This document shows, piece after piece, positions 37,197 to 64,000 of a stretch of DNA of 64,000 nt (within the stretch, counting starts at the first letter, position 1; every line of letters starts with the position of its first letter). The position numbers and the translations under genes are program-made. A model generated the notes under the pieces. It had not been told where the DNA came from. It made no database searches and saw only the letters and a program-made list of their open reading frames with translations. Origin of the DNA: a virus; IMG/VR virus record IMGVR_UViG_3300012933_000221, positions 7,911 through 71,910 of that record. One strand, given 5' to 3'.

Positions 37197-37925
37197 ATGC
37201 GTAGAATACTATCTGCTTTGGCACTTTTTGCCATTCTTTATAATTGCCAAGCAGCCGCTGCCAAAACTCTGCCCATAACTGCAACTACCTGGCTAGTTGC
37301 TGACGAACACGGCAAAATTTTACAAAGTGAGAACATAGAGCAAGTGCGGCCAATTGCCAGCATTAGTAAACTAATGACTGCTATGGTTGTACTCGATGCT
37401 AAACAAGATCTCAACGAGCAGATTGGCCCATATACTAGACACGAGTTAATACAACTAGCATTGGTTAAAAGCGATAATAAAGCAGCTCAAGACTTATGTA
37501 CTTACTATGAAGGCGGCAAAGAAAAGTGTGTCACCGCAATGAATTTAAAAGCCAAGCTATTAGGTTTGCCTAATACTAAATTTATCGAGCCCACCGGACT
37601 AAGTGTATTCAATGTTAGCACTGCAAGAGAATTAATTGTGCTAGTTCAAGAAGCACAAAAGTATGAACAAATTACCAATGCCAGTAAGAGTTCACAAGTA
37701 AAGATTAAACTGAAAAAGAAGTGGTTAATCTTTAATAACACAAATCCAATTATTGGTAAGACTCATAGTGTCATTGTCAGTAAGACAGGATTTATCAATG
37801 CCTCGGGCGGCTGCATTGTTATGATGTTAGATACAGAAGTTGGCAGACGAATAGTAGTTGTACTTGGCAGCAAGAATACTCGCACACGTATTCCCGAAGC
37901 AGAGTTTATTGCCTCGAAGAATTAA
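37197..37925 (+). CDS. pbpG: D-alanyl-D-alanine endopeptidase/carboxypeptidase (PBP7/PbpG-like)
   Basis: Signal peptide, SxxK (ASISKLMTAMVVLDA), SDN and KTG motifs. Long collinear similarity to enterobacterial PbpG. Confidence 0.75.
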   Translation: MRRILSALALFAILYNCQAAAAKTLPITATTWLVADEHGKILQSENIEQVRPIASISKLMTAMVVLDAKQDLNEQIGPYTRHELIQLALVKSDNKAAQDLCTYYEGGKEKCVTAMNLKAKLLGLPNTKFIEPTGLSVFNVSTARELIVLVQEAQKYEQITNASKSSQVKIKLKKKWLIFNNTNPIIGKTHSVIVSKTGFINASGGCIVMMLDTEVGRRIVVVLGSKNTRTRIPEAEFIASKN

Positions 37926-38627
37926 TTACCTGATCTTAGCAAGACCTAACATCCTAAAGACTGTTAGATAAAACCATCCAGCATCAAACTCCCACCACTT
38001 GTGACTTAGCTTAGGATTGGCTGGTTCTGCATGATGATTGTTGTGCAACTCTTCTCCGCCAATAATGATGCCCCAGGGTACAATATTTGTACTTTTATCT
38101 TTAGTCGTAGTGTTGCGATAGCCAAACCAATGACCAACTCCGTTTACTACGCCAGCGGCCCAAAAGGGAATCCACAACATTTGGACACCCCACACTAACA
38201 GTCCAATTGGGCCAAGTAACACAAGATTTATAACCAACATTAAGAGAATCCCAATGCGACTATGTGGGGTGTATAGTTTACGCTCGATCCAGTCATCAGG
38301 AGTACCAACTCCGTAGACTTGAATCATGCCAGTATCTTTACTAGCAGTATGATATAGCCCGGCACCTTTGAACAGTACTCGGAAAATGCCGTAGACATGC
38401 GGGCTGTGTGGATCGCCAGGTAAGTCAGTATTTTGGTGATGCTTGCGATGAATTGCAACCCATTGCTTAGTAACCATGCCTGTTGTTAGCCATAGCCAGC
38501 AGCGCATAAAATGACTAAGAATAGGGTGGAATTGAATGCCTCTATGGGCTTGTCCTCTATGAAGAAATAGAGTAACGCAGACGATAGTAATGTGTGTTAC
38601 TACCAGGGTGTATATTAGTGTGTTCAT
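37926..38627 (-). CDS. Membrane fatty-acid desaturase (delta-9 acyl-lipid/CoA desaturase family)
   Basis: His boxes HRGQAH, HRKHH and the GGEELHNNHHAEP motif. Multiple TM helices. Confidence 0.7.
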   Translation of the reverse strand: MNTLIYTLVVTHITIVCVTLFLHRGQAHRGIQFHPILSHFMRCWLWLTTGMVTKQWVAIHRKHHQNTDLPGDPHSPHVYGIFRVLFKGAGLYHTASKDTGMIQVYGVGTPDDWIERKLYTPHSRIGILLMLVINLVLLGPIGLLVWGVQMLWIPFWAAGVVNGVGHWFGYRNTTTKDKSTNIVPWGIIIGGEELHNNHHAEPANPKLSHKWWEFDAGWFYLTVFRMLGLAKIR

Positions 38628-38653
38628 AATATACTTATCGCAACTTTTAACAA

Positions 38654-38953
38654 TTGAATAAAAAGCTGGTTACTTTATCCAGCGCTGACTTTATTATGGC
38701 TCAGCAGTGTAATTACGCCGGCAATTTACGTTTGCTAGACGGACGCCTGCCCGGTGGGCTAACCGTTACGACAACGGCCCTAAGGTGGGTTCTTAAAATC
38801 TTCAATGTATTTAACCATTTAACTTGCAATTCTTTTGTAATTATGTTTAAATACAACATGTACTATTTGTTCTGGTTAATTGTCCTTGCTGTAATAGGCG
38901 GAGCAATCTACTGGCTTATGGATTGGAAGAAACATCACCCGGACGGTGAATAA
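38654..38953 (+). CDS. Hypothetical protein with a C-terminal TM helix
   Basis: Product of 99 aa. Confidence 0.35.
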   Translation: MNKKLVTLSSADFIMAQQCNYAGNLRLLDGRLPGGLTVTTTALRWVLKIFNVFNHLTCNSFVIMFKYNMYYLFWLIVLAVIGGAIYWLMDWKKHHPDGE

Positions 38954-38967
38954 TCAAGGAGTCTATC

Positions 38968-39036
38968 ATGACACGACCTATTGCAAAGAAGCGCCTAAGA
39001 GAAGCAGCAAAACGAGCTACTAAGAAGAGCCGTTAA
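38968..39036 (+). CDS. Small highly basic peptide (22 aa)
   Basis: AAGGAG SD 7 nt upstream. Sequence MTRPIAKKRLREAAKRATKKSR. Confidence 0.3.
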   Translation: MTRPIAKKRLREAAKRATKKSR

Positions 39037-39038
39037 TC

Positions 39039-39109
39039 ATGGCAAAATTTAAAGCACACCACCCTCGCTCAGTTCGTGCAACTGCACGTCGAGTTTTGAA
39101 AAAGAAATA
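39039..39109 (+). CDS. Small highly basic peptide (23 aa)
   Basis: Sequence MAKFKAHHPRSVRATARRVLKKK. Its stop overlaps the next ATG. Confidence 0.25.
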
Positions 39110-39724
39110 ATGCACGTAATTCCATTATTTGCAAATCCGTTAGGATGGGATATGCTTGATTTGGATAATGATGCTCTAGCAGAGTATTGTTATCAACAAG
39201 AGCATACTTCACTCGATCCAAGGACTGCACTTGGTTGGCAAAGTAACTTAGTTGATACGTCAGCTGAACAGTTAGCTCCACTAGTTGAAGAAATAAAAAT
39301 CAAGTTGCAAGATGCAACTCATTTGTTTCCGGTCCTAGAAGAACATGCTCCTCAGATCACAACCAGTTGGATTAATGTTAATAAGCCAAACGGAATTTCT
39401 TTGCAGAATAATGTTGCACATTTGCATCCTGGAAGATTTTGGACATTTGTATACTATGTCAAAGCTGCTCCAGGTTGCGGAGATTTAACTTTAACTTCAC
39501 CTCTTAAAAACATGTTAAGTTATGCTATTCCAAATCAGGTTTATAGCAGATTAACTCCGTTTAATGCGCTCCAATGGACAGTAACTCCAGAGCCTGGCAA
39601 ACTAATTATGTTTCCAGGCTGGATTGAACACCAAGCGCAAGAGAACCGAAGTGATAGTGACAGAATAAGTATTGCTATAAACGCAGACTTACAAAATTTA
39701 AGTAAGATCCAGTATCCGACTTAA
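39110..39724 (+). CDS. 2OG-Fe(II) oxygenase superfamily protein (marine-phage-type)
   Basis: C-terminus LIMFPGWIEHQAQENRSDSDRISIAIN matches the FPSWLxHxV...RISxSFN pattern. Confidence 0.5.
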   Translation: MHVIPLFANPLGWDMLDLDNDALAEYCYQQEHTSLDPRTALGWQSNLVDTSAEQLAPLVEEIKIKLQDATHLFPVLEEHAPQITTSWINVNKPNGISLQNNVAHLHPGRFWTFVYYVKAAPGCGDLTLTSPLKNMLSYAIPNQVYSRLTPFNALQWTVTPEPGKLIMFPGWIEHQAQENRSDSDRISIAINADLQNLSKIQYPT

Positions 39725-39734
39725 ATACAAGATA

Positions 39735-40105
39735 GTTGTAATTCCTTTGGATAGAAGGCATTTTGGACGCGGGTTCGACTCCCGCCAGGTCCACCATTAA
39801 ACATACTCTTCCCTACCCTGGCTGGAACGGCTGTGCGGGGATAGGAGAACAGACCCGTTTGAGTATGTTTAATAATGGGCCTGCCATGGTTTCGACAGGG
39901 TGAGATATTGAAGACGGCAACTGAGTAGGCGATGACTCTAAATCAAGCAAATTAAAGTAAATGCTAACACATCTACATTCAAGCGTATCGAAGTTAACGT
40001 CGCCTTAAACGACGCTGAGTTCGCTCTAGCAGCCTAAGAAACTGCACTTGCGAGGTAGGACTTACCTTGTCATCCAAACAACCAGAACCCGCTTAGGCGG
40101 GTTTC
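39735..40105 (+). ncRNA. ssrA: tmRNA (ssrA), circularly permuted two-piece type
   Basis: Acceptor piece: T-arm GCGGG-TTCGACT-CCCGC, 3' strand CAGGTCC, ACCA (39769..39796). Coding piece starts GGGCCTGCCATGGTTTCGACAGGG at 39877, giving a 7-bp acceptor stem with G3:U. The tag ORF ANTSTFKRIEVNVALNDAEFALAA ends with TAA at 40035..40037. A terminal hairpin lies at 40087..40102. Confidence 0.7.
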
Positions 40106-40165
40106 TTTATGGTTGACACATTCTTCAAAATCGCTTATACTGTAGTTACACAGAAGGAGAAGTAT

Positions 40166-40372
40166 ATGGCCCAAGTTAAGTTCAATACAGTGTATCAAGT
40201 AGACATTATTGAAAGCGAGCGTGGTTGGGGCAGTAAAGTTGACGAAACACTTTACTTTGACAATCAAGCAGAAGCTGTCAAATATGCTGAAGACTACAAC
40301 AAAAAATATAACACCGCAACTGAAGTACCTGATTGGTATATGTATGCTCGTTACGCAGGTAAAGTTGGGTAA
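40166..40372 (+). CDS. Hypothetical protein
   Basis: AAGGAG SD before the ATG at 40166. Product is 68 aa. Confidence 0.4.
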   Translation: MAQVKFNTVYQVDIIESERGWGSKVDETLYFDNQAEAVKYAEDYNKKYNTATEVPDWYMYARYAGKVG

Positions 40373-40379
40373 ATACAAG

Positions 40380-40886
40380 ATGAAAATATACGAACTAAAC
40401 CAATCCGCAGATATTGTGCATAGAGCCAAAACTCTAGCTTCAAAATTACATGCTAACCAAAGATATGGAGTACATCCGTATATTGTTCACCTTGCGGCAG
40501 TTGCTCGAAAAGTACAAGAAGCGGGCGGATCTCCCGAACTGATTGCAGCAGCATGGCTTCATGATAGTTTGGAAGATACGCCGATTACACAAGACGAACT
40601 TCGTGACCAATTTGGCAATACTGTAGCAGATGTAGTTTGGGCAGTTACTGGTGAAGGTCACAATCGTAAAGCCAAATTGGCTAGCGTAATTGGAAAGATT
40701 GCAAATACGCCTGGTGCCGATCTAGTCAAAAGTGCAGATCGTTTGTGTAACACACAAGCATGTATCGACGACAAATTGGTTGACAAGGCTAGAATGTACA
40801 AAGGTGAACACGATCAATTGGGCCCTGTATTGGGAACTAATCCATTAGCCAGACAATTATATAAAATATTTGTCCAAATGGATTGA
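40380..40886 (+). CDS. Small alarmone hydrolase (RelA/SpoT-type HD domain)
   Basis: HANQRYGVHPYIVHLAAVARKV...AAAWLHDSLEDT matches the SpoT hydrolase motif AHxxQxRxSGEPYIxHP...AALLHDxxEDT. Confidence 0.55.
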   Translation: MKIYELNQSADIVHRAKTLASKLHANQRYGVHPYIVHLAAVARKVQEAGGSPELIAAAWLHDSLEDTPITQDELRDQFGNTVADVVWAVTGEGHNRKAKLASVIGKIANTPGADLVKSADRLCNTQACIDDKLVDKARMYKGEHDQLGPVLGTNPLARQLYKIFVQMD

Positions 40887-40975
40887 CTCAGGACTGTTTC
40901 GACGTTATAATTAACACATAAATAAAAAAGCAATGCGATAGACGCAAAGCTGACATACTTAGAAAGGATTTTTCT

Positions 40976-41995
40976 ATGTCAAAAGAATATGGTACCCTTG
41001 TCCTTATTGGACGTTTTCAACCCTTACACAATGCTCACTTAGAGATTATCAAACGTGCAACCGCACTGACAGATAACTTAGTGATTATTACAGGTTCGGC
41101 TGCTCAACCCCGCACTTACAAAAACCCGTTCACTAGTGCCGAACGGGCGCAAATGATTAAAGCCGCAACAGGCGGTCTTGCAATGCAAATTCACATTGAA
41201 GAAAATGTGGACACTATCTACAATGACCAAGCATGGGCAGTTCGTGTTCAAGGCATTGTAAGCAAATATCGAATCCTTGGCACAAAGACTGCTGTCATTG
41301 GTCACAAGAAGGATGAAAGCTCATTCTACTTAGACATGTTCCCTCAATGGGGCTATGTTGATATTGAAGAAATCGAGCCATTGAGTGCCGTTAACATTCG
41401 CGACCTGTACTTCCGTCGTGATGCTAACATGAACTTCATTAAGGCAGTTGTGCCGCAAAGTACATTTGTCTACTTAGATGCTTTTAAAGATACTGCTGAG
41501 TACGAACAAATTATCCGCGAACGTGAGTTCGTTGAAACTTACAAGAAGCAATATGCCTCATTGCCTTACCCACCGATCTTCAGTACTGCTGACGCAGTTG
41601 TAATCCAAAGCGGACACATCTTGCTGATCAAACGCCGCGCTGAGCCCGGTAAAGGCTTGTGGGCACTGCCCGGCGGTTACGTCAACGCTAACACTGACAA
41701 GTCAGTTGAAGATGCTGCCATTCGTGAGTTGCGTGAAGAAACTATGATTAAGGTTCCTGCTCCTGTGTTGCGTGGTAGCATTGTGCGCAGTAAGGTGTTT
41801 GACGCAGTTGATCGTAGTCCACGTGGACGTATTATTACACACGCCTTTTACATTCAACTGCCCGACGGCGAGTTGCCTAAAGTAAAAGGTAGCGACGATG
41901 CAGAGAAAGCCCGTTGGGTTCCTATTGCAGAGGTCAAGAGCGAAGAGTGCTTTGAAGACCACTACGAAATTATTCAACACTTCTTAGGTGCGTAA
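40976..41995 (+). CDS. nadM: Bifunctional NMN adenylyltransferase / Nudix hydrolase (NadM-Nudix, NatV-like)
   Basis: N-terminal GRFQPLHNAH nucleotidyltransferase motif. C-terminal Nudix box GLWALPGGYV...AIRELREETMI. Confidence 0.75.
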   Translation: MSKEYGTLVLIGRFQPLHNAHLEIIKRATALTDNLVIITGSAAQPRTYKNPFTSAERAQMIKAATGGLAMQIHIEENVDTIYNDQAWAVRVQGIVSKYRILGTKTAVIGHKKDESSFYLDMFPQWGYVDIEEIEPLSAVNIRDLYFRRDANMNFIKAVVPQSTFVYLDAFKDTAEYEQIIREREFVETYKKQYASLPYPPIFSTADAVVIQSGHILLIKRRAEPGKGLWALPGGYVNANTDKSVEDAAIRELREETMIKVPAPVLRGSIVRSKVFDAVDRSPRGRIITHAFYIQLPDGELPKVKGSDDAEKARWVPIAEVKSEECFEDHYEIIQHFLGA

Positions 41996-42173
41996 AATGA
42001 GTCAATATGATATCACAGTTAAGATACGTGTTACTGTTGACAATGGCGGCGGCATGACAGCAGCAGAGTGGGCCAACTACATTGCCAAGTCATACGCTGA
42101 AATGGCACTGAAGTATAAAAGTATTGGCGCTGATGAAGTTGTTCATGTTGATGTGGAGGCTGTATGCAAATAA
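41988..42173 (+). CDS. Small hypothetical protein
   Basis: Product of 61 aa. Confidence 0.35.
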   Translation: MRKMSQYDITVKIRVTVDNGGGMTAAEWANYIAKSYAEMALKYKSIGADEVVHVDVEAVCK

Positions 42174-42415
42174 TTAAATGTTGGGACATTCAAACGTGGG
42201 ATGGTGGTGACCGCCACAATCACAAGTACTATGTCAAGACTGAAGAAGACGCTCGTGCATGGTTGGAAAAGAACAAGTATGATGCGATTTACGAACGCGA
42301 GTTTGTTATCCTTGATGACTTAACCGAAGTCGAAGCGTTCAAGAATGGCCAGCTTCGTAAGCAAGCATTGGCTAAACTAACTGATGCTGAAAAAGTTGTA
42401 CTGGGGTTAAAGTGA
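42164..42415 (+). CDS. Small hypothetical protein
   Basis: Product of 83 aa. Confidence 0.35.
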   Translation: MQIIKCWDIQTWDGGDRHNHKYYVKTEEDARAWLEKNKYDAIYEREFVILDDLTEVEAFKNGQLRKQALAKLTDAEKVVLGLK

Positions 42416-42609
42416 TGGTAACAGTTGTAAGCACAGTTCCGCATCCAAGTGTAGTCAAAGAAACTATCTGCAAGAACTGCGGTGCTACATTACAATATGT
42501 GCCCGTGGATATCAAGCGTGAAGAAAGTAGAGACTACACTGGCGGACTAGATGTGTATCATTATATCAAGTGTCCCCCATGTGGTGATAAAGTTTATGTT
42601 AAAAGGTAA
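42412..42609 (+). CDS. Zinc-ribbon protein
   Basis: CKNCG ... CPPCG in 65 aa. Confidence 0.4.
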   Translation: MMVTVVSTVPHPSVVKETICKNCGATLQYVPVDIKREESRDYTGGLDVYHYIKCPPCGDKVYVKR

Positions 42610-42614
42610 TTAAA

Positions 42615-43076
42615 ATGAAGACAGTAAAAGGTGATTTGTTAGCAATGGCTAAAGCAGGAGACTTTGACATTATTGTTCAAGGTTGTAATTGTCACAACGT
42701 GATGGGCAGTGGTATTGCTCGTCAAATTCGAGATCAGTTTCCCGATGCATGGCTTGCTGATCAAGAAACATTGTCAGGTGATCGTAACAAGTTGGGCCGT
42801 TATACTATTGGTATGGGCGGACGCTTGGTTGTAATTAATGCCTATACACAGTATAATACTGCTAAGTTCCCAGGGCAGGATGTTTTTGAATACAACAGTT
42901 TTGAAAACATTTTGGAAAATCTAGTTGCCCGTTTTGGTAAATATCGAATCGGTTTGCCAATGATTGGAATGGGTTTGGCAGGAGGAGATCCTGCTCGAAT
43001 TATGCCCATGTTGGAAAAGTTCGCAGAGCAAATGGCTGAAAATGGCGGCTCTGCTACATTGGTTGAATTTGGTTAA
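42615..43076 (+). CDS. Macro-domain-like (ADP-ribose binding/processing) protein
   Basis: GDLLAMAKAGDFDIIVQGCNCHNVMGSGIA ... IGLPMIGMGLAGGDP fits macro-domain topology. Confidence 0.5.
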   Translation: MKTVKGDLLAMAKAGDFDIIVQGCNCHNVMGSGIARQIRDQFPDAWLADQETLSGDRNKLGRYTIGMGGRLVVINAYTQYNTAKFPGQDVFEYNSFENILENLVARFGKYRIGLPMIGMGLAGGDPARIMPMLEKFAEQMAENGGSATLVEFG

Positions 43077-43090
43077 TATAGGAAAATAAA

Positions 43091-43291
43091 ATGGCTGATT
43101 TTTTGGAAGACGCAGAAGCAACAACCAATTTGCTACTGCAAGAGGCATTGCGTAACAGAGCAAAAGTACCAGATAAAACTGGCTTCTGTTTGGCTTGTGA
43201 TGAGCCGACTGAAGGTGCATTTTGCTCAGGTGAATGCCGAGAAGATTACGAACGAATTGCCCGATTGAAGGCAATTAGTGGTAAGAAATAG
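43091..43291 (+). CDS. Small C4 zinc-finger protein
   Basis: CLAC-x9-CSGEC. Ends with one of the rare TAG stops. Confidence 0.4.
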   Translation: MADFLEDAEATTNLLLQEALRNRAKVPDKTGFCLACDEPTEGAFCSGECREDYERIARLKAISGKK

Positions 43292-43320
43292 TTGACGTAG
43301 AAACGGTTTTACGTTATACT
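43292..43320 (+). promoter_or_regulatory. Sigma70-like promoter (TTGACG-17-TATACT)
   Basis: Upstream of nadV. Confidence 0.45.
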
Positions 43321-43373
43321 ATAAACAAGTCCAAGCGATAGACGCCTGGCAATTTAAATAAAGGAACTTTATT

Positions 43374-44777
43374 ATGAAACTCGCTCAAAACATTATCTTA
43401 AACACTGACTCTTACAAAGTGTCGATGTTCAAACAATACCCAGCAGGTACTACAGGTGTATACTCGTATATCGAGAGTCGCGGGGGCCGTTACGATCGAA
43501 CAGTTATGTTCGGACTCCAGGCTTTTATCAAAGAATACTTACTCGAACCAATCACTCAATCAGACATTGATATTGCTGACGAAATCCTTACCGCACACGG
43601 TGAGCCTTTCCCTCGAGCCATGTGGCAACACATTCTTGACAAGCACAATGGATACCTCCCAGTTGTTATCCGAGCAGTTGCTGAAGGTACGGTTGTACCA
43701 GTTTCAAACGTTCTCGCAACTATTGAAAACACAGACCCAGAATGCTTCGCGTTAACTACATGGTTAGAAACAGCCTTGCTTCGTGCAGTTTGGTATGGTA
43801 CTACTGTAGCCACACAAAGCTGGACTATTAAACAAGTCATTAAAGACTATTTGGAGAAATCAGGTGACGTTACTGGGCTCGATTTTAAGTTGCACGATTT
43901 CGGTGCTCGTGGTGTTTCTAGCATGGAATCAGCGGGTATCGGAGGTGCGGCACACTTGGTTAACTTCATGGGTAGTGATACTATTACTGGTGTTCTGTAT
44001 GCTCGCGAATACTATGGTGCTGGGGTTGCAGGTTTTTCTATCCCTGCCGCTGAACACTCAACAATCACTAGTTGGGGCCGTGATGGTGAAGTAAAAGCCT
44101 ATAGCAACATGGTTGCACAGTTCGGCAAGCCCGGCGCTATTGTTGCAGTTGTGTCTGATAGCTACGACATCTACGAAGCATGTAAAATGTGGAGTACCGG
44201 TGACTTGAAACAACAAGTTATCGATTCGGGTGCTACTGTTGTTATCCGTCCTGACTCTGGCGATCCTGTTGATGTGTTGCCTAAGATGATTGCTATCCTT
44301 GGACAAGGCTTTGGTTTTACTAAGAACAGCAAAGGCTACAAAGTACTCAACAATGTGCGTTTGATCTGGGGTGATGGTATTAACATCCAAAGCATCCAAG
44401 CTATTATGCGTATTGTAGTAGACTTGAATGGCTGGAGTGCTGATAACCTTGCGTTTGGTATGGGCGGTGCATTGCTCCAACAAGTGGACCGCGATACTCA
44501 AAAGTTCGCTATGAAATGTTCGAGTGCGGAAATTAACGGTAAATGGGTCGATGTAATGAAAGATCCAGTTACTGACACTGGCAAGCGAAGCAAGGCAGGT
44601 CGTGTTCAACTTTGGACTAACAGTGGTGGTGAGTTTGCTTCTAGCGTAACTGCTCCTACTGGTTGGACTGATAAAGGCATTGGTGGTTGGGTTCCTGCAC
44701 TGCAAGAAGTCTACCGCGATGGTAAACTTGTCAAAGAAATGTCCTTTGATGAAGTTCGAGCAAACGCTCGCAAATAA
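43374..44777 (+). CDS. nadV: Nicotinamide phosphoribosyltransferase (NadV/NAMPT)
   Basis: Full-length NAPRTase-family type II fold. Product is 467 aa. Confidence 0.85.
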   Translation: MKLAQNIILNTDSYKVSMFKQYPAGTTGVYSYIESRGGRYDRTVMFGLQAFIKEYLLEPITQSDIDIADEILTAHGEPFPRAMWQHILDKHNGYLPVVIRAVAEGTVVPVSNVLATIENTDPECFALTTWLETALLRAVWYGTTVATQSWTIKQVIKDYLEKSGDVTGLDFKLHDFGARGVSSMESAGIGGAAHLVNFMGSDTITGVLYAREYYGAGVAGFSIPAAEHSTITSWGRDGEVKAYSNMVAQFGKPGAIVAVVSDSYDIYEACKMWSTGDLKQQVIDSGATVVIRPDSGDPVDVLPKMIAILGQGFGFTKNSKGYKVLNNVRLIWGDGINIQSIQAIMRIVVDLNGWSADNLAFGMGGALLQQVDRDTQKFAMKCSSAEINGKWVDVMKDPVTDTGKRSKAGRVQLWTNSGGEFASSVTAPTGWTDKGIGGWVPALQEVYRDGKLVKEMSFDEVRANARK

Positions 44778-44791
44778 GTTATAAAGACTTA

Positions 44792-44820
44792 TTGACAGGA
44801 CCTCCGGGTCCTGTTATAAT
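44792..44820 (+). promoter_or_regulatory. Sigma70-like promoter (TTGACA-17-TATAAT) with a spacer hairpin CAGGACC-tccg-GGTCCTG
   Basis: Consensus hexamers. A perfect 7-bp hairpin fills the spacer. Confidence 0.5.
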
Positions 44821-44858
44821 TAACGCACTTAGAAACACAGTATTGAAAGAGAATTTTA

Positions 44859-45950
44859 ATGTCATACTTTTTGAAATCAGGTAACACTTTCCGAGTCTCT
44901 GCTAAAGAGGCAATGGACATCCGTGAGCAACTGCCTGCTGGCAACTATGTTGTCAAAGAGATGCCTATGGATGGCCCACTTTACCTTGAAATGATTGATA
45001 GCTTCGAAGTCAAGGGCAAGAAGTACGGTGACTTGAATAAGAACACAGATCGTATTCTTAATACATTTATGAGCCGTCCTGCTAGTACTGGCGTAATGCT
45101 TGCTGGCGAAAAAGGTTCTGGTAAGAGCTTGCTGGCAAAGAACTTGTCAATTGAAGCGGCTGCTCGAATGGGCATTCCTACTATTGTTATCAACGCACCT
45201 TGGGTCGGTGACAAGTTCAACAGCTTTATCCAAAGCATTGAACAGCCTGTTGTGATCTTGTTTGACGAGTTCGAAAAGGTCTATGATTCCGACGATCAAG
45301 AAAAGGCACTAACATTGCTTGACGGTGTATTCCCAAGCAAGAAGTTGTTTGTCCTTACTTGTAACGACAAGTGGCGTGTGGATCAACACATGCGCAACCG
45401 TCCAGGCCGTATCTTCTACATGTTGGACTACAAAGGTCTTGACTCAGCGTTCATTACTGAATACTGTAATGACAACCTCAAGCCAGCCTTGTTGAAGCAC
45501 ACAGAGAAGCTGTGCCAAATTGCCAGCTTGTTTGCTCAGTTTAACTTTGACATGTTGAAAGCCACTGTCGAAGAAATGAACCGCTACGATGAAGAACCAC
45601 AAGACGCTCTGCGTATGTTGAACGTCAAGCCAGAGTTCGACGGTGGCAACAAATTCGACATCAAGGTTATCCGAAACGGTGAAGAACTGAAGGACGACGA
45701 ATTGGAAAGCAACCAATGGAGTGGTAACCCACTTCAGAGCAATGTTCGTATCCACTACAAGGACTACGAAGATGAAAAGGATTCTGACGGCGACTACCCT
45801 TGGGATTGGACAAATGTCACTTTCAGTGCCGCAGACTTGACCAAGATTGACAGCAACGCTGGCAAGTTCGTGTTCGTGGCAAAGGACGGAACTACTTTGG
45901 TCCTTAACAAGGTCAAAGAAAAGTCTTTTAGCTACTACGATGCATTTTAA
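44859..45950 (+). CDS. AAA+ ATPase
   Basis: Walker A LAGEKGSGKSLLAKNL, Walker B VVILFDEFEK and sensor region CNDKW. Confidence 0.6.
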   Translation: MSYFLKSGNTFRVSAKEAMDIREQLPAGNYVVKEMPMDGPLYLEMIDSFEVKGKKYGDLNKNTDRILNTFMSRPASTGVMLAGEKGSGKSLLAKNLSIEAAARMGIPTIVINAPWVGDKFNSFIQSIEQPVVILFDEFEKVYDSDDQEKALTLLDGVFPSKKLFVLTCNDKWRVDQHMRNRPGRIFYMLDYKGLDSAFITEYCNDNLKPALLKHTEKLCQIASLFAQFNFDMLKATVEEMNRYDEEPQDALRMLNVKPEFDGGNKFDIKVIRNGEELKDDELESNQWSGNPLQSNVRIHYKDYEDEKDSDGDYPWDWTNVTFSAADLTKIDSNAGKFVFVAKDGTTLVLNKVKEKSFSYYDAF

Positions 45951-45976
45951 CCCAAAATGCTAATCAAAACCCGGTG

Positions 45977-46005
45977 TTGACACATCGGGTTTTTTCTTGT
46001 ATAAT
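45977..46005 (+). promoter_or_regulatory. Sigma70-like promoter (TTGACA-17-TATAAT) overlapping an upstream terminator hairpin
   Basis: CCCGGTG-ttgaca-CATCGGG hairpin plus a T-run, with the -35 hexamer in the loop. The conserved leader ATACATAGAAACAAAGAAAG follows. Confidence 0.5.
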
Positions 46006-46491: not shown

Positions 46492-48660
46492 ATGGCTATC
46501 ATTGCAAGCGCACCACAAGACCAAGCAGTTTTGAGCAACGTTGGTGAAATTGGCGAGTTCCGTATCCGCAACTCTGCTAAAGCATTCAGTATTTTGAGCT
46601 CGGGCTTGTATGCAAACAAGATCCGTGCTATCGTTCGCGAATTGTCCTGCAACGCAGTTGACTCGCACATCGCCGCAAGAAAACAAGAAACACCCTTTGA
46701 TGTCCATTTGCCTAACCAATTGGAACCTTGGTTTTCTATTCGCGACTACGGCACAGGATTGACACATGAACAAGTTACCCAAATCTACACCACTTACTTC
46801 GAGTCCACAAAAACCAACTCCAATGAGTTTATCGGAGCTCTCGGCCTCGGCTCAAAGAGTCCTTTCAGTTACACGGATAACTTTACCGTCACCGCCATCC
46901 GTGACGGTGTTAAAGGCATTTACTCCGCCTTCATCAACGGAGATGGAGTACCGAGTATTGCGCAAATGATGACTGAAGAAACTGACGAGCCTGCTGGCGT
47001 TGAAGTAAAGTTCAGCGTTAACGATCGTTATGACTTCGACAAGTTCCGTCAGGAAGCTCGATTTGTTTACAAGTATTTCAAGTTGCAACCTGTTGTGACT
47101 GGCTATGCTGATTTTAAAATCGAAACAGTTGAATACGAAAGCAAGGACATCGTTCCAGGCGTTCACCAAGCTAAGAGCGGACATCGTAGTGTTGCCATTA
47201 TGGGCAATATTGCTTATCCTATTGACATTCCGCAAGCTGACCAAACGTTGGGCGAACTGACTCGATTGCTCCAATGCAGTTTGGAAATCCACTTTGGTAT
47301 CGGTGAATTGGACTTCCAAGCGTCACGTGAAGGCTTGAGCTACATTCCACAAACTGTGAACGCTATTAAAGCCAAGCTGGAATCATTGAACGCAGTATTG
47401 GCTGGCAAGTTGGCTGAAGAAGCAGATGTGATCCCTAACTTGTGGGATCGTGCTATCTTCTTGCAAAAGCGTAAGGACAACTACTTGTGGGGTGCCGCAG
47501 TTAAGAAATATGTTGCCGACACTAATCTGGTAACATACGATGACGGCCGTTATGGTGGTACTAAGACTTTTAAGATGGGTGTTGAAGACCTGGCTAAAAA
47601 GTATAATATCACAGTTCGTGGTTTCAATTACAACAAGCACAGCAAAGCCTACAACAACAAGAAGAGTGAAATCGACTACGGTAACGTGCGTAATGCTAGT
47701 GGCAGCTACGACATGTTCCACTACTGGGGCTTCACTGTTAGCGACTATGTCAACTTTGTTGTAAACGACACTAAGATCGGTGCTGTTGAACGTGCTAAGT
47801 ATCACTACCGCGAAACTAAGCCAGATCAAAACAATATCTCTGTCTACGTGTTGGACCCTGCTGACAAGACTAAGCCAATGAAAACTGCGGCTTTCTTCAA
47901 AGCAATCCATAATCCAGGTGATAACAAGCGTTTTGTGGCGAGTGCGTTTTTGAAGAAAGAACGTGAAGCAGGCAACTTGAAGAACGTGACTATCCTGTCA
48001 TTGCAAGAACGCGGCTTCGGCGGCTACTATCGTCAGAAAGAGATGGTTTGGCGTGATGCAGGTAAAGCTGACTCGTTTGATAAGACCCATACTTTCTACT
48101 ACTTGCCTTTGAGCGGATTCAATCCGATCAGCAAAGTAGTTGGCGGCTTCAACGTTAAGAACTTGTTCACTGATTTGAAAGAGTGCGGTGTTGCTGGTTT
48201 GCGTAATCAAACTATCTACGGTGTGCGTAAAGGTGACATTGAGTTTATTAAAACTCAAAAGAACTGGGTAAACATCGAAGACCACATTGCTAAGGAGTTG
48301 TCGACGATTGACAATAAATTAGTTATGAGTTTGGTGTTGCAGGCTGTTGACAAATTTAACTTGATGTCGTATAATTACAGTATTGTCAGCGATGTAACGT
48401 ATGCTAACAGTCCTTATTTGGCGTTAGTAACACAGTTCAAAGACTTTAGCAAAGTTGAGTACAGTGAACAGAGCTTGAAAAACTTGTGCCGTATGTATGC
48501 TACTAACGTAACATTCAATCCACAAGCTACAGTAGATCAGTTTGTTGAACAATGCAAGGCAGTCGGAGAGCGTTATCCGTTGTTGGCTTACTTGCGCAGT
48601 GCTCCAAGCGCAGAAGTGGCAAATTATATTAACATGGTTGATACACAGAAAGGTATTTAA
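46492..48660 (+). CDS. rIIA: rIIA-like protein (GHKL ATPase N-terminal domain)
   Basis: Product of 722 aa. KAFSILSSGLYANKIRAIVRELSCNAVDSH (N box), IRDYGTGL (G1) and FIGALGLGSKSPFSYTDNFTVTA match the T4 rIIA N-terminal region as recalled. Confidence 0.65.
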   Translation: MAIIASAPQDQAVLSNVGEIGEFRIRNSAKAFSILSSGLYANKIRAIVRELSCNAVDSHIAARKQETPFDVHLPNQLEPWFSIRDYGTGLTHEQVTQIYTTYFESTKTNSNEFIGALGLGSKSPFSYTDNFTVTAIRDGVKGIYSAFINGDGVPSIAQMMTEETDEPAGVEVKFSVNDRYDFDKFRQEARFVYKYFKLQPVVTGYADFKIETVEYESKDIVPGVHQAKSGHRSVAIMGNIAYPIDIPQADQTLGELTRLLQCSLEIHFGIGELDFQASREGLSYIPQTVNAIKAKLESLNAVLAGKLAEEADVIPNLWDRAIFLQKRKDNYLWGAAVKKYVADTNLVTYDDGRYGGTKTFKMGVEDLAKKYNITVRGFNYNKHSKAYNNKKSEIDYGNVRNASGSYDMFHYWGFTVSDYVNFVVNDTKIGAVERAKYHYRETKPDQNNISVYVLDPADKTKPMKTAAFFKAIHNPGDNKRFVASAFLKKEREAGNLKNVTILSLQERGFGGYYRQKEMVWRDAGKADSFDKTHTFYYLPLSGFNPISKVVGGFNVKNLFTDLKECGVAGLRNQTIYGVRKGDIEFIKTQKNWVNIEDHIAKELSTIDNKLVMSLVLQAVDKFNLMSYNYSIVSDVTYANSPYLALVTQFKDFSKVEYSEQSLKNLCRMYATNVTFNPQATVDQFVEQCKAVGERYPLLAYLRSAPSAEVANYINMVDTQKGI

Positions 48661-48661
48661 A

Positions 48662-49684
48662 ATGAGTTATCCATATTTGATTCAGGGCAGTAACATTGTT
48701 GTCGTTATCGGCAATAAGAGTCACACAATTAGCAAGACCCACATTACCTATAATAAGGTACTGGAAGCTATCAAAGCTAACGATTGGGATTCGTTGCCCG
48801 ATATTATCGAACCTAAAAAGGTTGTGTTGAACTTTGGCAAGGGCAATGTGTCAATCCAAGGCGAAACATTGTTCTGGAAAGGCAAGGAACTTAACACTGG
48901 CTTGTCAGTGCGTATGATCCAAATGTTGCAAGAAGGCTTCCCTGTTGAACCTATGGTTAACTTCATGGAAAACTTGTACGCTAACCCTAGCAAACGTGCT
49001 GTCACTGAATTGTATGGCTTCTTGGAAAAGAACAACTTGCCAATCACTCCAGATGGTCACTTCTTGGCTTACAAGAAAGTGCGCAACAACTTCTTGGACA
49101 TCCACAGTGGTACAATGGATAACTCCGTTGGTACTGTTGTTGAAATGGAACGACACGAAGTTGATGACAACAAGGATGTAACTTGTTCAACTGGTTTGCA
49201 CTTCTGCGGTATGAGCTACTTGCCACACTTTGGTGGCGGTGATAGCCGTACAGTTATCGTTAAGATTAACCCAGCTGACGTTGTAAGCATTCCAAGTGAC
49301 TACAACGATGCTAAGGGTCGTGCATGCCGTTATGAAGTCATCGGTGAGTTGAACGTTAATCCAGAAGATGCGTTTACTAAGCCAGTGCAAGACAATGCTG
49401 TTGGTACTAAGACGTTTACTCGTCCAGTGCCAACTGGTCCAAAGACTGGTGACACTGTGTTCAAGCGTGGCTACACTGATGGCTTTACTTGTTCAGCTTA
49501 TGCTAACCCTTACAACTATGGTTCAAAGCAACATAAGGACTATAGCGAAGGATTTAACATGGGCCAAGGCGACTATGATGCTGGCAATGCAGAACGTTAT
49601 CGTTATGCGAAGACGCTGGCAGCTGGTTACGGTGCAGTGCCGCTAGATAATGGTGTTTGGCCTTTTCCTCCTAAATCTAATTAA
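48662..49684 (+). CDS. rIIB: rIIB-like protein
   Basis: CSTGLHFCGMSYLPHFGGGDSRTVIVKINPADVVSIPSDYNDAKGRACRYEV matches the conserved rIIB core. The gene immediately follows rIIA. Confidence 0.6.
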   Translation: MSYPYLIQGSNIVVVIGNKSHTISKTHITYNKVLEAIKANDWDSLPDIIEPKKVVLNFGKGNVSIQGETLFWKGKELNTGLSVRMIQMLQEGFPVEPMVNFMENLYANPSKRAVTELYGFLEKNNLPITPDGHFLAYKKVRNNFLDIHSGTMDNSVGTVVEMERHEVDDNKDVTCSTGLHFCGMSYLPHFGGGDSRTVIVKINPADVVSIPSDYNDAKGRACRYEVIGELNVNPEDAFTKPVQDNAVGTKTFTRPVPTGPKTGDTVFKRGYTDGFTCSAYANPYNYGSKQHKDYSEGFNMGQGDYDAGNAERYRYAKTLAAGYGAVPLDNGVWPFPPKSN

Positions 49685-49699
49685 TCAAGGAACATAAAA

Positions 49700-50548
49700 A
49701 TGTTTACTATTGTATTTTTTCTATTGCTGGCTATTGTAGCCGCTGGTGCTATTGCTCTGTTGCTTAAACAGACAGCATTAGGTATTTTGTCAGGACTTAT
49801 CATCTTCATCGGTGGTATTGGATTTAGTTCGTTCACTGTTATCAGTGCAGGACACACAGGTGTTATTGTTACTTTGGGTGAGGTTAATCCTGTAACACTT
49901 ACTGAAGGTTGGCACTTTGTTAATCCAGTAAGTCAAGTTAAAGACGTTAACGTTCAACTTCAGCGTACTCAACTAGCAGGTGCTAATGCATCCACTAAGG
50001 ACTTGCAGGTTGTACACACTGACATCGTTGTCCAGTATCGTTTACACGCAGACAAGGTACCGCACATCTACAAAGAGTATGGCTTGAACGTAGATGACAA
50101 GGTTCTTGGTCCAGCTATTAACGAAGCGTTCAAATCAATTACTGCCAAGTACACAAGTGAGGAATTGGTTACTAAGCGTCAAATTGTTTCAGATGAAATC
50201 CAAACTATGTTGAAAAGCAAAGTTGCTCCGTTTGACATTGATGTAAGTGGTATTAGTTTGGTTAACTTTGGCTTTAGTGCTGAATACCAAAAGGCCATTG
50301 AACAGAAGGTTATTGCTACACAACAAACAGCCAAAGCTGAACAAGACTTGGCACGTATCAAAGTTGAAGCTGCAAGCCGTATTGCTCAAGCCGAAGGTGA
50401 AGCCAAAGCTATCGCTATCCAGGCAAGTGCTATCCAAAGCCAAGGTGGACAGAACTATGTTCAACTGCAATGGATTGAAAAATGGGATGGTAAGTTGCCA
50501 ACTCATATGTTGCAAGGTGGACAAACGCTAATGAATATTGGCAAGTAA
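49700..50548 (+). CDS. SPFH/band-7 (HflK/C-, prohibitin-like) membrane protein
   Basis: N-terminal TM segment, then GHTGVIVTLGEVNPVTLTEGWHFVNPVSQVKDV SPFH core and a coiled-coil tail. Confidence 0.65.
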   Translation: MFTIVFFLLLAIVAAGAIALLLKQTALGILSGLIIFIGGIGFSSFTVISAGHTGVIVTLGEVNPVTLTEGWHFVNPVSQVKDVNVQLQRTQLAGANASTKDLQVVHTDIVVQYRLHADKVPHIYKEYGLNVDDKVLGPAINEAFKSITAKYTSEELVTKRQIVSDEIQTMLKSKVAPFDIDVSGISLVNFGFSAEYQKAIEQKVIATQQTAKAEQDLARIKVEAASRIAQAEGEAKAIAIQASAIQSQGGQNYVQLQWIEKWDGKLPTHMLQGGQTLMNIGK

Positions 50549-56534: not shown

Positions 56535-56851
56535 TGGGTACGCAAACTGACTACTTCAACAAGATCGGTTATAAGCACAAGTATGATATCGGTGACAGAG
56601 TCATCGGTACATACAAAAAGATCCCCGTAGTAGGTACAGTTGGAAACGATCGTTTGATTAATCATACTGATGGCCCAGAAATAACACTACACTTAGATCT
56701 GCCAATAAAGGTTGACAATGTGTATACATCGTTTATAATAGTTAAACATAAAGATATAAGGCGCTTGAAGTCTTTGGAAGACACTGAGCCTCTAAAACTC
56801 AAGGAAGCGGGTTCGATTCCCGCCAAGCGCACCAAACAAGGAAAGAAGTAA
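56534..56851 (+). CDS. Hypothetical protein (3' end overlaps a tRNA-like gene)
   Basis: Product of 105 aa. Confidence 0.4.
   Translation: MGTQTDYFNKIGYKHKYDIGDRVIGTYKKIPVVGTVGNDRLINHTDGPEITLHLDLPIKVDNVYTSFIIVKHKDIRRLKSLEDTEPLKLKEAGSIPAKRTKQGKK
56761..56834 (+). tRNA. Putative suppressor tRNA, anticodon CUA (reads UAG)
   Basis: Acceptor GCGCTTG/CAAGCGC + A + CCA. D-arm GTCT/AGAC (short loop). Anticodon stem TGAGC/ACTCA with loop CTCTAAA (U33, CUA, A37). T-arm GCGGG-TTCGATT-CCCGC. Confidence 0.45.
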
Positions 56852-63610: not shown

Positions 63611-63696
63611 GGGTGCTCGGTCGGAGTTGGAGAGCCACGGCGAGCTGTAACCTCGTTCACATAGTGTAGTAAGTTCGAATCTTACAGCACCCACCA
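63611..63696 (+). tRNA. tRNA, long variable arm, anticodon GUA (Tyr)
   Basis: Acceptor GGGTGCT/AGCACCC + A + CCA. Anticodon stem GCGAG/CTCGT with loop CTGTAAC. Variable arm CAC-ata-GTG. T-arm GTAAG-TTCGAAT-CTTAC. Confidence 0.6.
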
Positions 63697-63701
63697 ATTA
63701 T

Positions 63702-63775
63702 TCCTGGATAGTTAAATGGTATAACAATCGGCTGATAACCGGTCATTACAAGTTCGATTCTTGTTCTAGGAACCA
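63702..63775 (+). tRNA. tRNA, anticodon GAU (Ile)
   Basis: Acceptor TCCTGGA/TCTAGGA. D-stem GTTA/TAAC. Anticodon stem ATCGG/CCGGT with loop CTGATAA. T-arm ACAAG-TTCGATT-CTTGT. Ends ACCA. Confidence 0.6.
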
Positions 63776-63847
63776 AGTTTAGGATGCTAACAGCAAAGTT
63801 AAAAACTTTTCTTTTGGTGAAAACAAAAATGCATCCTGTTTAATTAT

Positions 63848-63921
63848 ATAGCGTTGGACTTCTGGGAGGTCACCACCCTTTCAAGGTGGCTAGGCGGGTT
63901 CGATCCCCGTACGCTATACCA
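63848..63921 (+). tRNA. tRNA, anticodon UUC (Glu)
   Basis: Acceptor ATAGCGT/ACGCTAT. Anticodon stem CCACC/GGTGG with loop CTTTCAA. T-arm GCGGG-TTCGATC-CCCGT. Ends ACCA. Confidence 0.6.
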
Positions 63922-63925
63922 ATAT

Positions 63926-64000
63926 GCCGTTGTAGCTCTCTGGGAGGGTAACTGATTGTCTATCAGATTTAGGCGAGTTCGATTCTCGTCAGCGGCGCCA
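63926..64000 (+). tRNA. tRNA, probable anticodon GUC (Asp)
   Basis: Acceptor GCCGTTG/CAGCGGC + G + CCA. T-arm GCGAG-TTCGATT-CTCGT. Anticodon arm CTGA/TCAG with loop TTGTCTA. Identity is tentative. Confidence 0.5.

Follow-up and report, generated by a model that had tools for sequence, protein, structure and literature searches.

A NARP2 operon with an embedded Adpp-like macro-domain gene beside a small alarmone hydrolase gene in an uncultured phage

Introduction

What does a phage gain from keeping genes for two enzymes of NAD+ synthesis, a macro-domain protein and an alarmone hydrolase within less than 5 kb? The question is raised by positions 40,380 to 44,777 of a 64,000-nucleotide stretch of virus DNA (positions 7,911 to 71,910 of IMG/VR virus record IMGVR_UViG_3300012933_000221; the whole of this stretch is called the window below), in which an original prediction, made from the letters alone, saw a counter-defence island of four enzymes. 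Depletion of nicotinamide adenine dinucleotide (NAD+) is among the commonest anti-phage strategies of bacteria, and the pathways that rebuild it, the NAD+ reconstitution pathways NARP1, NARP2 and NARP3, are under current study. We found that the observation is real and its interpretation largely right. All four enzymes are encoded on the plus strand where they had been placed and are borne out by Pfam, NCBIfam, PDB and model evidence. We consider it fairly probable that the locus combines a NARP2 pathway carrying an embedded Adpp-like macro-domain gene with an independent small alarmone hydrolase (SAH), and that it has a role in counter-defence. Its parts are known counter-defence tools, and NARP2 and phage SAHs have been described before. 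What is new is a conserved, NARP2-embedded Adpp-like macro protein, mostly with a His-to-Gln exchange, and a recurrent adjacency of SAH and NadM genes; both are modest variants.

Results and discussion

Judged by gene content, NadV and NadM-Nudix are the published NARP2 pathway, which consists of a nicotinamide phosphoribosyltransferase (Nampt/NadV) and a bifunctional nicotinamide mononucleotide adenylyltransferase (NMNAT)-Nudix enzyme, with 94% co-occurrence of the two genes (bioRxiv 10.1101/2024.02.11.579819). The original prediction had proposed a NARP2-type route, and the window encodes the exact published enzyme pair. NadV scored 628.5 bits with the NCBIfam equivalog model NF006629 (cut-off 405) and matched Pfam NAMPT_N and NAPRTase. 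It aligned over its full length with bacterial NAMPT 7yqo (558 bits) and human NAMPT (423 bits) in the PDB, and a second set of entries named 'nicotinamide phosphoribosyltransferase' reached just 211-245 bits; its best match was in Acidovorax phage ACP17, with 61% identity. NadM-Nudix scored 403.2 bits with NF003786 (cut-off 397), contains the Pfam domains CTP_transf_like and NUDIX, matched the bifunctional enzymes of Synechocystis and Francisella (296 bits with PDB 2qjo) and is 38% identical to NatV of phage KVP40. The two genes share a strand, with 1.4 kb between them, and are adjacent or near-adjacent in 68 of the 68 relatives whose locus covers both. NadM-Nudix is present in 487 of 50,697 phage records, consistent with the frequency of ∼1% reported for NARP2, and no PRPS-like (Adps) domain was detected in the scanned genes between 35.3 and 52.6 kb. 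KVP40 NadV and NatV were reportedly the subject of Lee et al. 2017.

The defences that the original prediction expected to be counteracted (Thoeris, DSR, SEFIR and some CBASS) form too broad a list, which matches the data on NARP1. The KVP40 enzymes Nampt and Nmnat together overcome type I Thoeris as well as DSR2, and NARP2 yields excess NAD+ irrespective of defence (bioRxiv 10.1101/2024.02.11.579819). NARP2 was later shown to cancel aRES (in E. coli) and Nezha as well, and these four are the systems against which it was tested. The KVP40 enzymes have the same domain architecture as those of the window, whereas in the window NadM and NadV are split by four small open reading frames (ORFs) and the macro gene, an insertion kept in ∼80% of an uncultured clade. 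Within ∼8 kb of natV, KVP40 has no macro or HD homologue.

Among the families expected from the original prediction, NAPRTase, CTP_transf_like with NUDIX, and HD_4 scored above the Pfam cut-off, and Macro did so marginally (23.6 against a cut-off of 22). The macro assignment is nevertheless solid by profile and model evidence. The protein matched phrog_335 with 163 bits, and a PDB profile search retrieved SCO6735, Poa1p (E 1e-10), BT1257, DarG and TARG1. Its AlphaFold2 model (mean predicted local distance difference test score, pLDDT, 90.8) matched Poa1p, DarG, TARG1 and others in Foldseek at template modelling (TM) scores of 0.7-0.77, including the Poa1p entries 6lfq, 6lfr and 6lft at 0.73-0.76. 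N25, the MGxGIA loop, the P-x-IG-x-GL-x-GGD loop and Q79 are conserved.

The closest validated relative of the macro protein is Adpp. According to a January 2026 preprint (10.64898/2026.01.28.702374), the defence system aRES cleaves NAD+ to nicotinamide and ADP-ribose (ADPR)-1''-phosphate, and NARP1 is unable to use the latter. The preprint found the Poa1p-like macro protein Adpp in 15% of NARP1 operons; Adpp dephosphorylates ADPR-1''-phosphate and restores NARP1. Adpp is required against aRES, and inactivating any of the three genes of the Adpp-containing operon (NARP1-AP) abolishes the anti-aRES phenotype; the screen covered NARP1 operons only (10.64898/2026.01.28.702374). For comparison we used the Adpp sequences of Table S1 of that preprint. 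The Adpp of Vibrio phage Gary, encoded in a NARP1-AP operon, is a full-length homologue of the window protein, has the same Poa1p-like fold class and likewise belongs to an NAD+ reconstitution operon. Identity is 32% over 145 residues (E 1e-19) to Gary Adpp and 34% to the PN09 macro protein, with E-values ranging from 1e-19 to 8e-21, and 22 alignment columns are invariant between window-type macro proteins and the Adpp group. The partner differs: it is NARP2, which is based on phosphoribosyl pyrophosphate (PRPP), and not the Adps-Namat pair. NARP2 needs no ADPR substrate, so the window macro protein cannot have the obligatory role of Adpp.

A profile alignment with human TARG1 (hhalign; TARG1 sequence verified against the PDB) aligned K84 of TARG1 with the invariant Q79 and its D125 with A122. 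The macro protein thus lacks the catalytic pair K84/D125, whose K84 corresponds to DarG K80. Its sole nearby lysine, K84 in its own numbering, is not conserved; an alternative phmmer register aligns the DarG lysine with it. That pairwise phmmer alignment to DarG was gapless, with a register that is unreliable near the catalytic lysine, and was replaced by the TARG1 profile alignment. We filed the macro protein, on sequence and model grounds, as an Adpp/Poa1p-like homologue that departs at one defining residue, neither a confirmed Adpp nor a DarG-type enzyme.

We analyzed the conservation of the gene order in an IMG/VR scan with NadM, which returned 80 loci with 72-94% identity on contigs of up to 300 kb (L and P numbers are our labels for loci). 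NadV follows NadM in 68 of the 80 loci, with a macro gene in between in 53. In 14 of the remaining 15, NadM and NadV are 42-1,451 bp apart (11 within 91 bp) and the locus contains no macro gene, and in one the macro gene lies upstream of NadM. Once the relatives had been dereplicated (97% nucleotide identity of NadM), 49 of 61 had the macro gene between NadM and NadV. This conservation indicates that NadM, macro and NadV cluster beyond chance; for the HD gene the case is far less strong. The closest full match, L039, has the order tmRNA (transfer-messenger RNA), HD, NadM, macro, zinc finger, NadV, AAA, rIIA and rIIB. We take NadM-macro-NadV to be one inherited and retained arrangement rather than the outcome of many independent events.

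Cultured phages differ. The operon lacks a macro gene in the cultured NARP2 phages ACP17, Ps15 and BF; a 173-aa ORF between NadM and NadV of Serratia phage BF was considered and is no macro homologue. Synechococcus phage B23 and Ralstonia phage RSP15 have NARP2 genes and macro genes 25-100 kb off, and in IME-CF2 the macro gene is 3.2 kb away. Since the macro gene is absent or distant in these phages, the strict order NadM-macro-NadV appears to be specific to the uncultured clade. We found no description of a NARP2-plus-macro arrangement in the literature searched. Iyer et al. 2022 reported that ADP-ribose (ADPr)-processing domains, specifically NADAR, adjoin NadM/NadV and predicted soluble ADPr derivatives to be the targets of phage macro domains. 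The Pseudomonas phage Adele (Pakpunavirus) has an NAD+ pathway, a Poa1p-like macro protein and an SAH within ∼12 genes (macro 020, Namat 022, Adps 024, SAH 032), but its pathway is NARP1, its macro protein keeps His23/Asn26 and it lacks the NadM-macro-NadV order (PMC12846349).

The interval between NadM and NadV is a variable slot in the relatives, an NAD/ADPr-themed hotspot. A Nuc_deoxyri_tr2 gene (PF15891, 120 bits) directly follows the macro gene in 10 loci, a radical-SAM gene occupies the slot in 7, and a 140-aa protein is found in 4; the latter is SLOG-like by sequence motif alone and Pfam gives no family for it. Such genes were seen between macro and NadV in L011-L013, L028, L047, L052, L053, L055, L056, L075 and L076, and also in L041, L064, L077 and L086. 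Serratia phage BF (L182 10130-11839) has a Sir2-like protein and a second Nudix protein beside NadM-NadV, and Stenotrophomonas phage Ps15 (L185 1-2674, 10099-10602) has a protein with a PARP catalytic domain and a LOG-family protein there.

The HD protein is, by every sequence and fold criterion, a small alarmone hydrolase. It scored 46.9 bits with Pfam HD_4 (cut-off 27.2), TIGR00691 (spoT_relA) matched over the hydrolase part, and its best PDB matches were Rel hydrolase domains and small alarmone hydrolases; PF13328 was present in all but one of the 120 HD homologues among the matches listed. H24, H61-D62, E65-D66, D120 and N124 do not vary among 44 homologues and align with the Rel hydrolase motifs. 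The AlphaFold2 model (pLDDT 93.3) is one all-helical domain, with no synthetase or regulatory domains, and matched Pseudomonas aeruginosa SAH, RelH and human MESH1 in Foldseek at TM scores of 0.75-0.85. As a stand-alone, single-domain RelA/SpoT-type HD hydrolase of a lytic phage, with all hydrolase motifs intact, it resembles PbcSpo of phage PVP-SE1 and PaSpo of phage SSU5. The two phage SAHs neutralise every toxSAS toxin that was tested (Jimmy et al. 2020, PMC7229694). By analogy, toxSAS neutralisation is the default reading for the window SAH, in agreement with the original prediction, which had proposed an alarmone hydrolase acting against toxSAS or ppGpp-mediated responses. Differences from PbcSpo and PaSpo are that the window-type SAH is often placed beside NAD salvage genes and has a conserved 68-aa partner gene ahead of it, which travels together with the SAH gene in L034, L099, L101 and the P0148 contig.

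SAH genes occur repeatedly near NadM. Orthologues with 78%, 73% and 52% identity directly precede NadM, and the orthologues in this position are P0123, P0125, P0148 and that in L034. A second, non-orthologous family of 147-aa SAH-like proteins occupies the slot between tmRNA and NadM in L020, L026, L039 and L089; it has the motifs HxGQ...PYILH...GHDVIEDT...MADLRHN and scores just 21 bits with HD_4, below the threshold. An HD gene also lies directly upstream of NadM in L136 and L166, and at 2.6 kb in phiCbK-like phages, with the order HD, NadM, NadV in L136 and the phiCbK-like phages. A single-protein IMG/VR scan with the HD protein returned no match, and the SAH loci came from an alignment-based scan; NadM or NadV was within 5 kb in 7 of 80 diverse phage SAH loci. 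We conclude that the association of SAH with NadM is real but loose. It fits a clustering of early accessory genes, and a functional link is possible, because Mesh1 and an orphan SAH of Xanthomonas act as NADPH hydrolases that control the level of NADH (PMC9765508) and the best superposition of the window model is on human MESH1, including its NADPH complex (TM 0.84-0.85, root-mean-square deviation ∼2 Å).

Peptidyl-tRNA hydrolase genes accompany SAH-NadM in two unrelated phages: PTH2 is upstream of HD in a freshwater contig (L100 111-500), and in Caulobacter phage Karma (L090 6094-6525) Pth lies between HD and NadM, with RtcB nearby.

The gene order on the plus strand from 40.1 to 44.8 kb is the 68-aa gene, HD (SAH), NadM-Nudix, the 61-, 83- and 65-aa ORFs, macro, the 66-aa zinc-finger gene and NadV. 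All genes from NadM to the zinc-finger gene overlap their neighbour or are separated from it by no more than 14 bp, and hence form one operon. Gaps of 80-90 bp precede NadM, precede NadV and follow NadV, each with a near-consensus sigma-70 promoter. Such promoters are found in every intergenic gap (at 40113, 40883, 43292, 44792, 45977 and 46428), the pattern of the early region of T4-like phages. The SAH unit has its own promoter. Three zinc-ribbon proteins had been predicted to be interleaved with the enzymes; we count four small ORFs (61, 83, 65 and 66 aa), two of them with Cys4 motifs, and the 68-aa gene ahead of the HD gene as a further one. The idea of a single four-gene island held for the NadM-macro-NadV module but not for the SAH gene, which is a separate unit, adjoins NadM in a minority of relatives and has an orthologue in a ribonucleotide reductase (RNR) cluster elsewhere.

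In the arrangement that we favour, there are two functional units, the conserved NadM-macro-NadV core and a separate unit of the 68-aa gene and SAH, and host RNA polymerase would transcribe three units early after infection. NadV would convert nicotinamide and PRPP to nicotinamide mononucleotide (NMN), and the NMNAT half of NadM would convert NMN and ATP to NAD+. The Nudix half of NadM would cleave free ADPR to AMP and ribose-5-phosphate, which host Prs could return to PRPP. The macro protein would most likely convert a 1''-substituted ADPR to plain ADPR; ADPR-1''-phosphate from RES-type NAD+ phosphorolysis is the leading candidate substrate, and O-acyl-ADPR is also possible. This step would remove a dead-end or toxic product, supply the Nudix domain and close the ribose loop. 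Independently, the SAH may take the 3'-pyrophosphate off (p)ppGpp, (p)ppApp or toxSAS-modified tRNA and so blunt abortive infection based on the stringent response or on toxSAS growth arrest. Gene identities, folds, the state of the catalytic residues, conserved gene order and promoter positions are results of the analysis; the enzymatic activities, the substrates of macro protein and SAH, and the effect on defences are inferred.

Several points weigh against this reading. In the alignment, Gln22 of the macro protein sits where Gary Adpp has His24 and Poa1p His23. The role of the histidine rests on the description of Poa1p His23 as a key catalytic residue (PMC12846349) and on the Adpp point mutant H24A of the aRES study (supplementary table S4, bioRxiv 10.64898/2026.01.28.702374). 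At least 119 of the 129 NARP1-associated macro proteins of Table S1 have H-x-[CA]-N-C, none has QGCNC, and the cultured homologues of phages B23, RSP15 and anhysbys carry His. With His replaced by Gln22, plain Adpp activity is not assured, and the earlier proposal that the macro protein removes ADPR signals or products is reasonable with this reservation. The macro protein is also dispensable in principle, since the published cancellation of aRES in E. coli was achieved by NARP2 alone. In the nearest cultured phages, ACP17 and Ps15, NadM and NadV are directly adjacent and free of a macro gene, and 12 of the 61 dereplicated relatives likewise have no macro gene between them. As for the SAH, such a gene is directly upstream of NadM in 5 of the 64 dereplicated clusters with upstream coverage (∼8%; from the 80 NadM-selected loci), and in four of the loci behind this count it belongs to the 147-aa family. 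One orthologue (54% identity) is found among the RNR genes, with nrdA on one side and an aldolase/nrdB pair on the other.

These points leave room for other readings of the macro protein. It could be a non-catalytic binder of ADPR derivatives, serving as a sponge for a Thoeris-type signal (gcADPR or His-ADPR), as an ADPR sensor or as a carrier that delivers ADPR to the Nudix domain; proteins that counter Thoeris as sponges are known (PMC12043709). In its own clade (120 database homologues and 54 IMG/VR copies), position 22 is ∼88% Gln and ∼12% His, and the clade alignment contains no neighbouring His that compensates for Gln22. A compensating His at position 27 was considered and rejected, Q22/F27 being the most frequent combination. 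Yet the same slot holds a His-type gene in some close relatives and a Gln-type gene in others (His-types L012, L013, L054, L064 and L072 are also between NadM and NadV), which suggests that the two types are functionally interchangeable and softens the concern about the lost His. The other active-site elements are invariant, and we regard a mere binder as unlikely. Many macrodomains, moreover, use substrate-assisted catalysis. A further reading makes the macro protein an orphan antitoxin of the DarG2/AdfM type, which would remove the ADP-ribose that DarT2 attaches to thymidines of phage DNA and whose location in an NAD operon would be incidental. Phage macrodomain anti-DarT factors exist, such as AdfM of chimalliviruses (PMC13309987). 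The window protein weakly matches DarG models (NF048014 29.2 bits, PADLOC DarG 27 bits) and shares the macro fold class (TM ∼0.7 with the DarG macrodomains 5m3e, 5m31 and 5m3i) and the active-site Asn (N25, DarG N22) with AdfM/DarG2 and human TARG1. However, these scores are far below threshold (cut-off of 250 for NF048014), and the protein resembles Adpp much more closely. It has no conserved counterpart of the catalytic Lys (TaqDarG K80, AdfM K78, TARG1 K84), the Lys/Asp pair being replaced by Q79 and A122. There is no DarT-related gene nearby, and the position between NadM and NadV is conserved. We consider an antitoxin of this kind very unlikely.

Other readings concern the SAH and the locus as a whole. 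The HD protein might belong to the NAD economy instead of serving against alarmones: as a phosphatase resembling Mesh1, it would turn NADP(H) into NAD(H), or 2'-phospho-ADPR into ADPR, and thereby replenish the pool rebuilt by NARP2. The superposition on MESH1 and the NADPH hydrolysis by its relatives speak for this, as do the SAH genes of two non-orthologous families recurring upstream of NadM, the 7 of 80 SAH loci near NadM or NadV, and the SAH of phage Adele ∼8 genes from NARP1 and its macro gene. We still judge it improbable, as the SAH forms a separate unit with its own promoter, is absent upstream of NadM in ∼92% of the dereplicated clusters with upstream coverage and has the orthologue among RNR genes; phage SAHs neutralise toxSAS experimentally, and the co-location may reflect the clustering of early accessory genes alone. 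Extended to all four enzymes, the same idea gives an NAD(P) recovery network reaching beyond NARP2, in which the His-to-Gln macro protein would yield ADPR from non-canonical products of NAD+ breakdown (ADPR-1''-phosphate or another 1''-substituted ADPR), the Nudix domain ribose-5-phosphate and PRPP, and NadV with NMNAT NAD+, with a Mesh1-like SAH drawing on the NADP pool as an NADP(H) or 2'-phospho-ADPR phosphatase. Such an SAH would explain why two non-orthologous SAH families are repeatedly found upstream of NadM; we give this network only a small chance. Finally, the four genes could be auxiliary metabolic genes that provide more NAD+, relax stringent control and speed up replication, with no defence as target and the 'island' reflecting the crowding of the early region. 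NARP2 makes excess NAD+ with or without a defence, metabolic genes for a 2-oxoglutarate (2OG)-Fe(II) oxygenase, a fatty-acid desaturase, a DD-carboxypeptidase and RNR are among the neighbours, the SAH moves between NAD and RNR clusters, and promoters separate the units. A metabolic role is compatible with counter-defence, however, and NARP2 genes cancel Thoeris, DSR2, aRES and Nezha. The retention of a macro protein for ADPR derivatives within the operon of 80% of relatives is best understood if cleavage of NAD+ takes place, and rIIA/rIIB, classical anti-exclusion genes, directly follow. A purely metabolic role is, in our view, rather unlikely.

The role described so far for a phage Poa1p-like macro protein is solely that of making NARP1 work against RES-type NAD+ phosphorolysis. 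Here a homologue is kept in NARP2 operons across a large uncultured clade, although NARP2 needs no ADPR substrate. If the macro protein is active, ADPR-1''-phosphate or a related product would matter for detoxification or ribose recycling, beyond its role as a substrate in NARP1; if it is inactive or has another specificity, another ADPR-derived molecule in the conflict between phage and host would be indicated. The recurrence of SAH beside NadM, in turn, offers a testable link between NADPH phosphatase activity of the Mesh1 type and the rescue of NAD+ by phages.

Genomic setting and neighbouring genes

The features of the locus are collected in Table 1. The true start of the 68-aa gene is 40166, which has a promoter and a GGAG upstream, and not the mechanical start 40109. 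The 61-aa ORF is kept in 6 relatives, where it is upstream of NadM, and the 65-aa zinc-ribbon gene is present in 12 relatives, each time between NadM and NadV.

Table 1. Features of the locus, with positions in the window, and 147-aa SAH-like genes of relatives, with positions in their own loci
Feature	Position	Strand	Remarks
Sigma-70-like promoter of the 68-aa gene + SAH unit	40113..40141	+	TTGACA-17-TATACT, 11/12; just past the tmRNA terminator hairpin
68-aa protein, phrog_14410, function not assigned	40166..40372	+	ATG 40166 behind GGAG ribosome-binding site
Small alarmone hydrolase (SAH), 168 aa	40380..40886	+	Pfam HD_4, TIGR00691, PDB matches, AlphaFold2 model
Sigma-70-like promoter, 89-bp gap before NadM	40883..40911	+	TTGACT-17-TATAAT, 11/12
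NadM-Nudix (NARP2 Nmnat), 339 aa	40976..41995	+	NF003786, Pfam CTP_transf_like + NUDIX
61-aa protein	41988..42173	+	One Cys, no zinc ribbon; overlaps NadM stop
83-aa protein, phrog_5370	42164..42415	+	One Cys, no zinc ribbon; kept in 7 relatives
65-aa Cys4 zinc ribbon, phrog_2834	42412..42609	+	CKNC...CPPC
Adpp/Poa1p-like macro-domain protein, 153 aa	42615..43076	+	phrog_335, PDB profile search, AlphaFold2/Foldseek
66-aa DksA/TraR-type C4 zinc finger, phrog_54	43091..43291	+	CLAC...C..SGEC; same position in L039, L099
Sigma-70-like promoter, gap before NadV	43292..43320	+	TTGACG-17-TATACT, 10/12
NadV, nicotinamide phosphoribosyltransferase (NARP2 Nampt), 467 aa	43374..44777	+	NF006629, Pfam NAMPT_N + NAPRTase
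147-aa SAH-like genes of relatives	L020 7291-7734; L026 7467-7910; L039 338-781; L089 7291-7734; L081 1312-1758		

Megablast of positions 40000-45000 against the 50,697 phage records gave zero matches, which indicates a phage without a close cultured relative. The setting is phage-like, with rIIA/rIIB at 46.5-49.7 kb and ribonucleotide reductase at 14.8 kb. The best explanation for the source is an uncultured large T4-like or jumbo phage, of which the locus is an early host-takeover and counter-defence stretch; its host is probably a freshwater betaproteobacterium.

A two-piece (permuted) tmRNA of the betaproteobacterial type is encoded at 39683-40128 on the plus strand (Rfam RF04321 127 bits, RF01850 111 bits), with the ARAGORN tag DAEFALAA* and a terminator hairpin at 40085-40104, immediately before the SAH unit. 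Related sequences were found upstream of NadM in L026, L039 and L063 and beside the macro gene in L008, with short matches in L038 and L057. The tmRNA points tentatively to a host among the betaproteobacteria and to translation rescue as a theme next to the SAH. Upstream auxiliary metabolic genes span 37197-39724 and encode a DD-carboxypeptidase (Peptidase_S11, 37197-37925), a fatty-acid desaturase (37926-38627, minus strand) and the 2OG-Fe(II) oxygenase (39110-39724).

An AAA ATPase gene (44859-45950, plus strand; phrog_2376, 295 bits) directly follows NadV here and in most relatives, in which NadV-AAA-rIIA-rIIB is the common order. A sigma-70 promoter with a perfect score (12/12; 44792-44820) and a strong terminator (45966-45993) flank the gene, which could be a backbone gene or a member of the module. 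A PADLOC scan matched the Nudix part of NadM to PDC-S07 (34 bits) and the AAA ATPase to mad8 (17 bits); these matches are weak and indicate no defence system, and the only other hit was the weak DarG-like match of the macro protein. Genes for rIIA (46492-48660), rIIB (48542-49684) and an SPFH/Band-7 protein (49700-50548) follow, all on the plus strand, as a further anti-exclusion or membrane-related block beside the NAD island.

Further downstream, a tRNA with the anticodon CTA (amber suppressor) is encoded at 56761-56834 on the plus strand, labelled 'Pyl' by ARAGORN and scoring 47 bits with the Rfam tRNA model; it could mean that TAG is read through or recoded in some stretches of the genome. 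A cluster of tRNAs, Tyr-GTA, Ile-GAT, Glu-TTC and Asp-GTC, occupies positions 63611-64000 on the plus strand, up to the end of the window.

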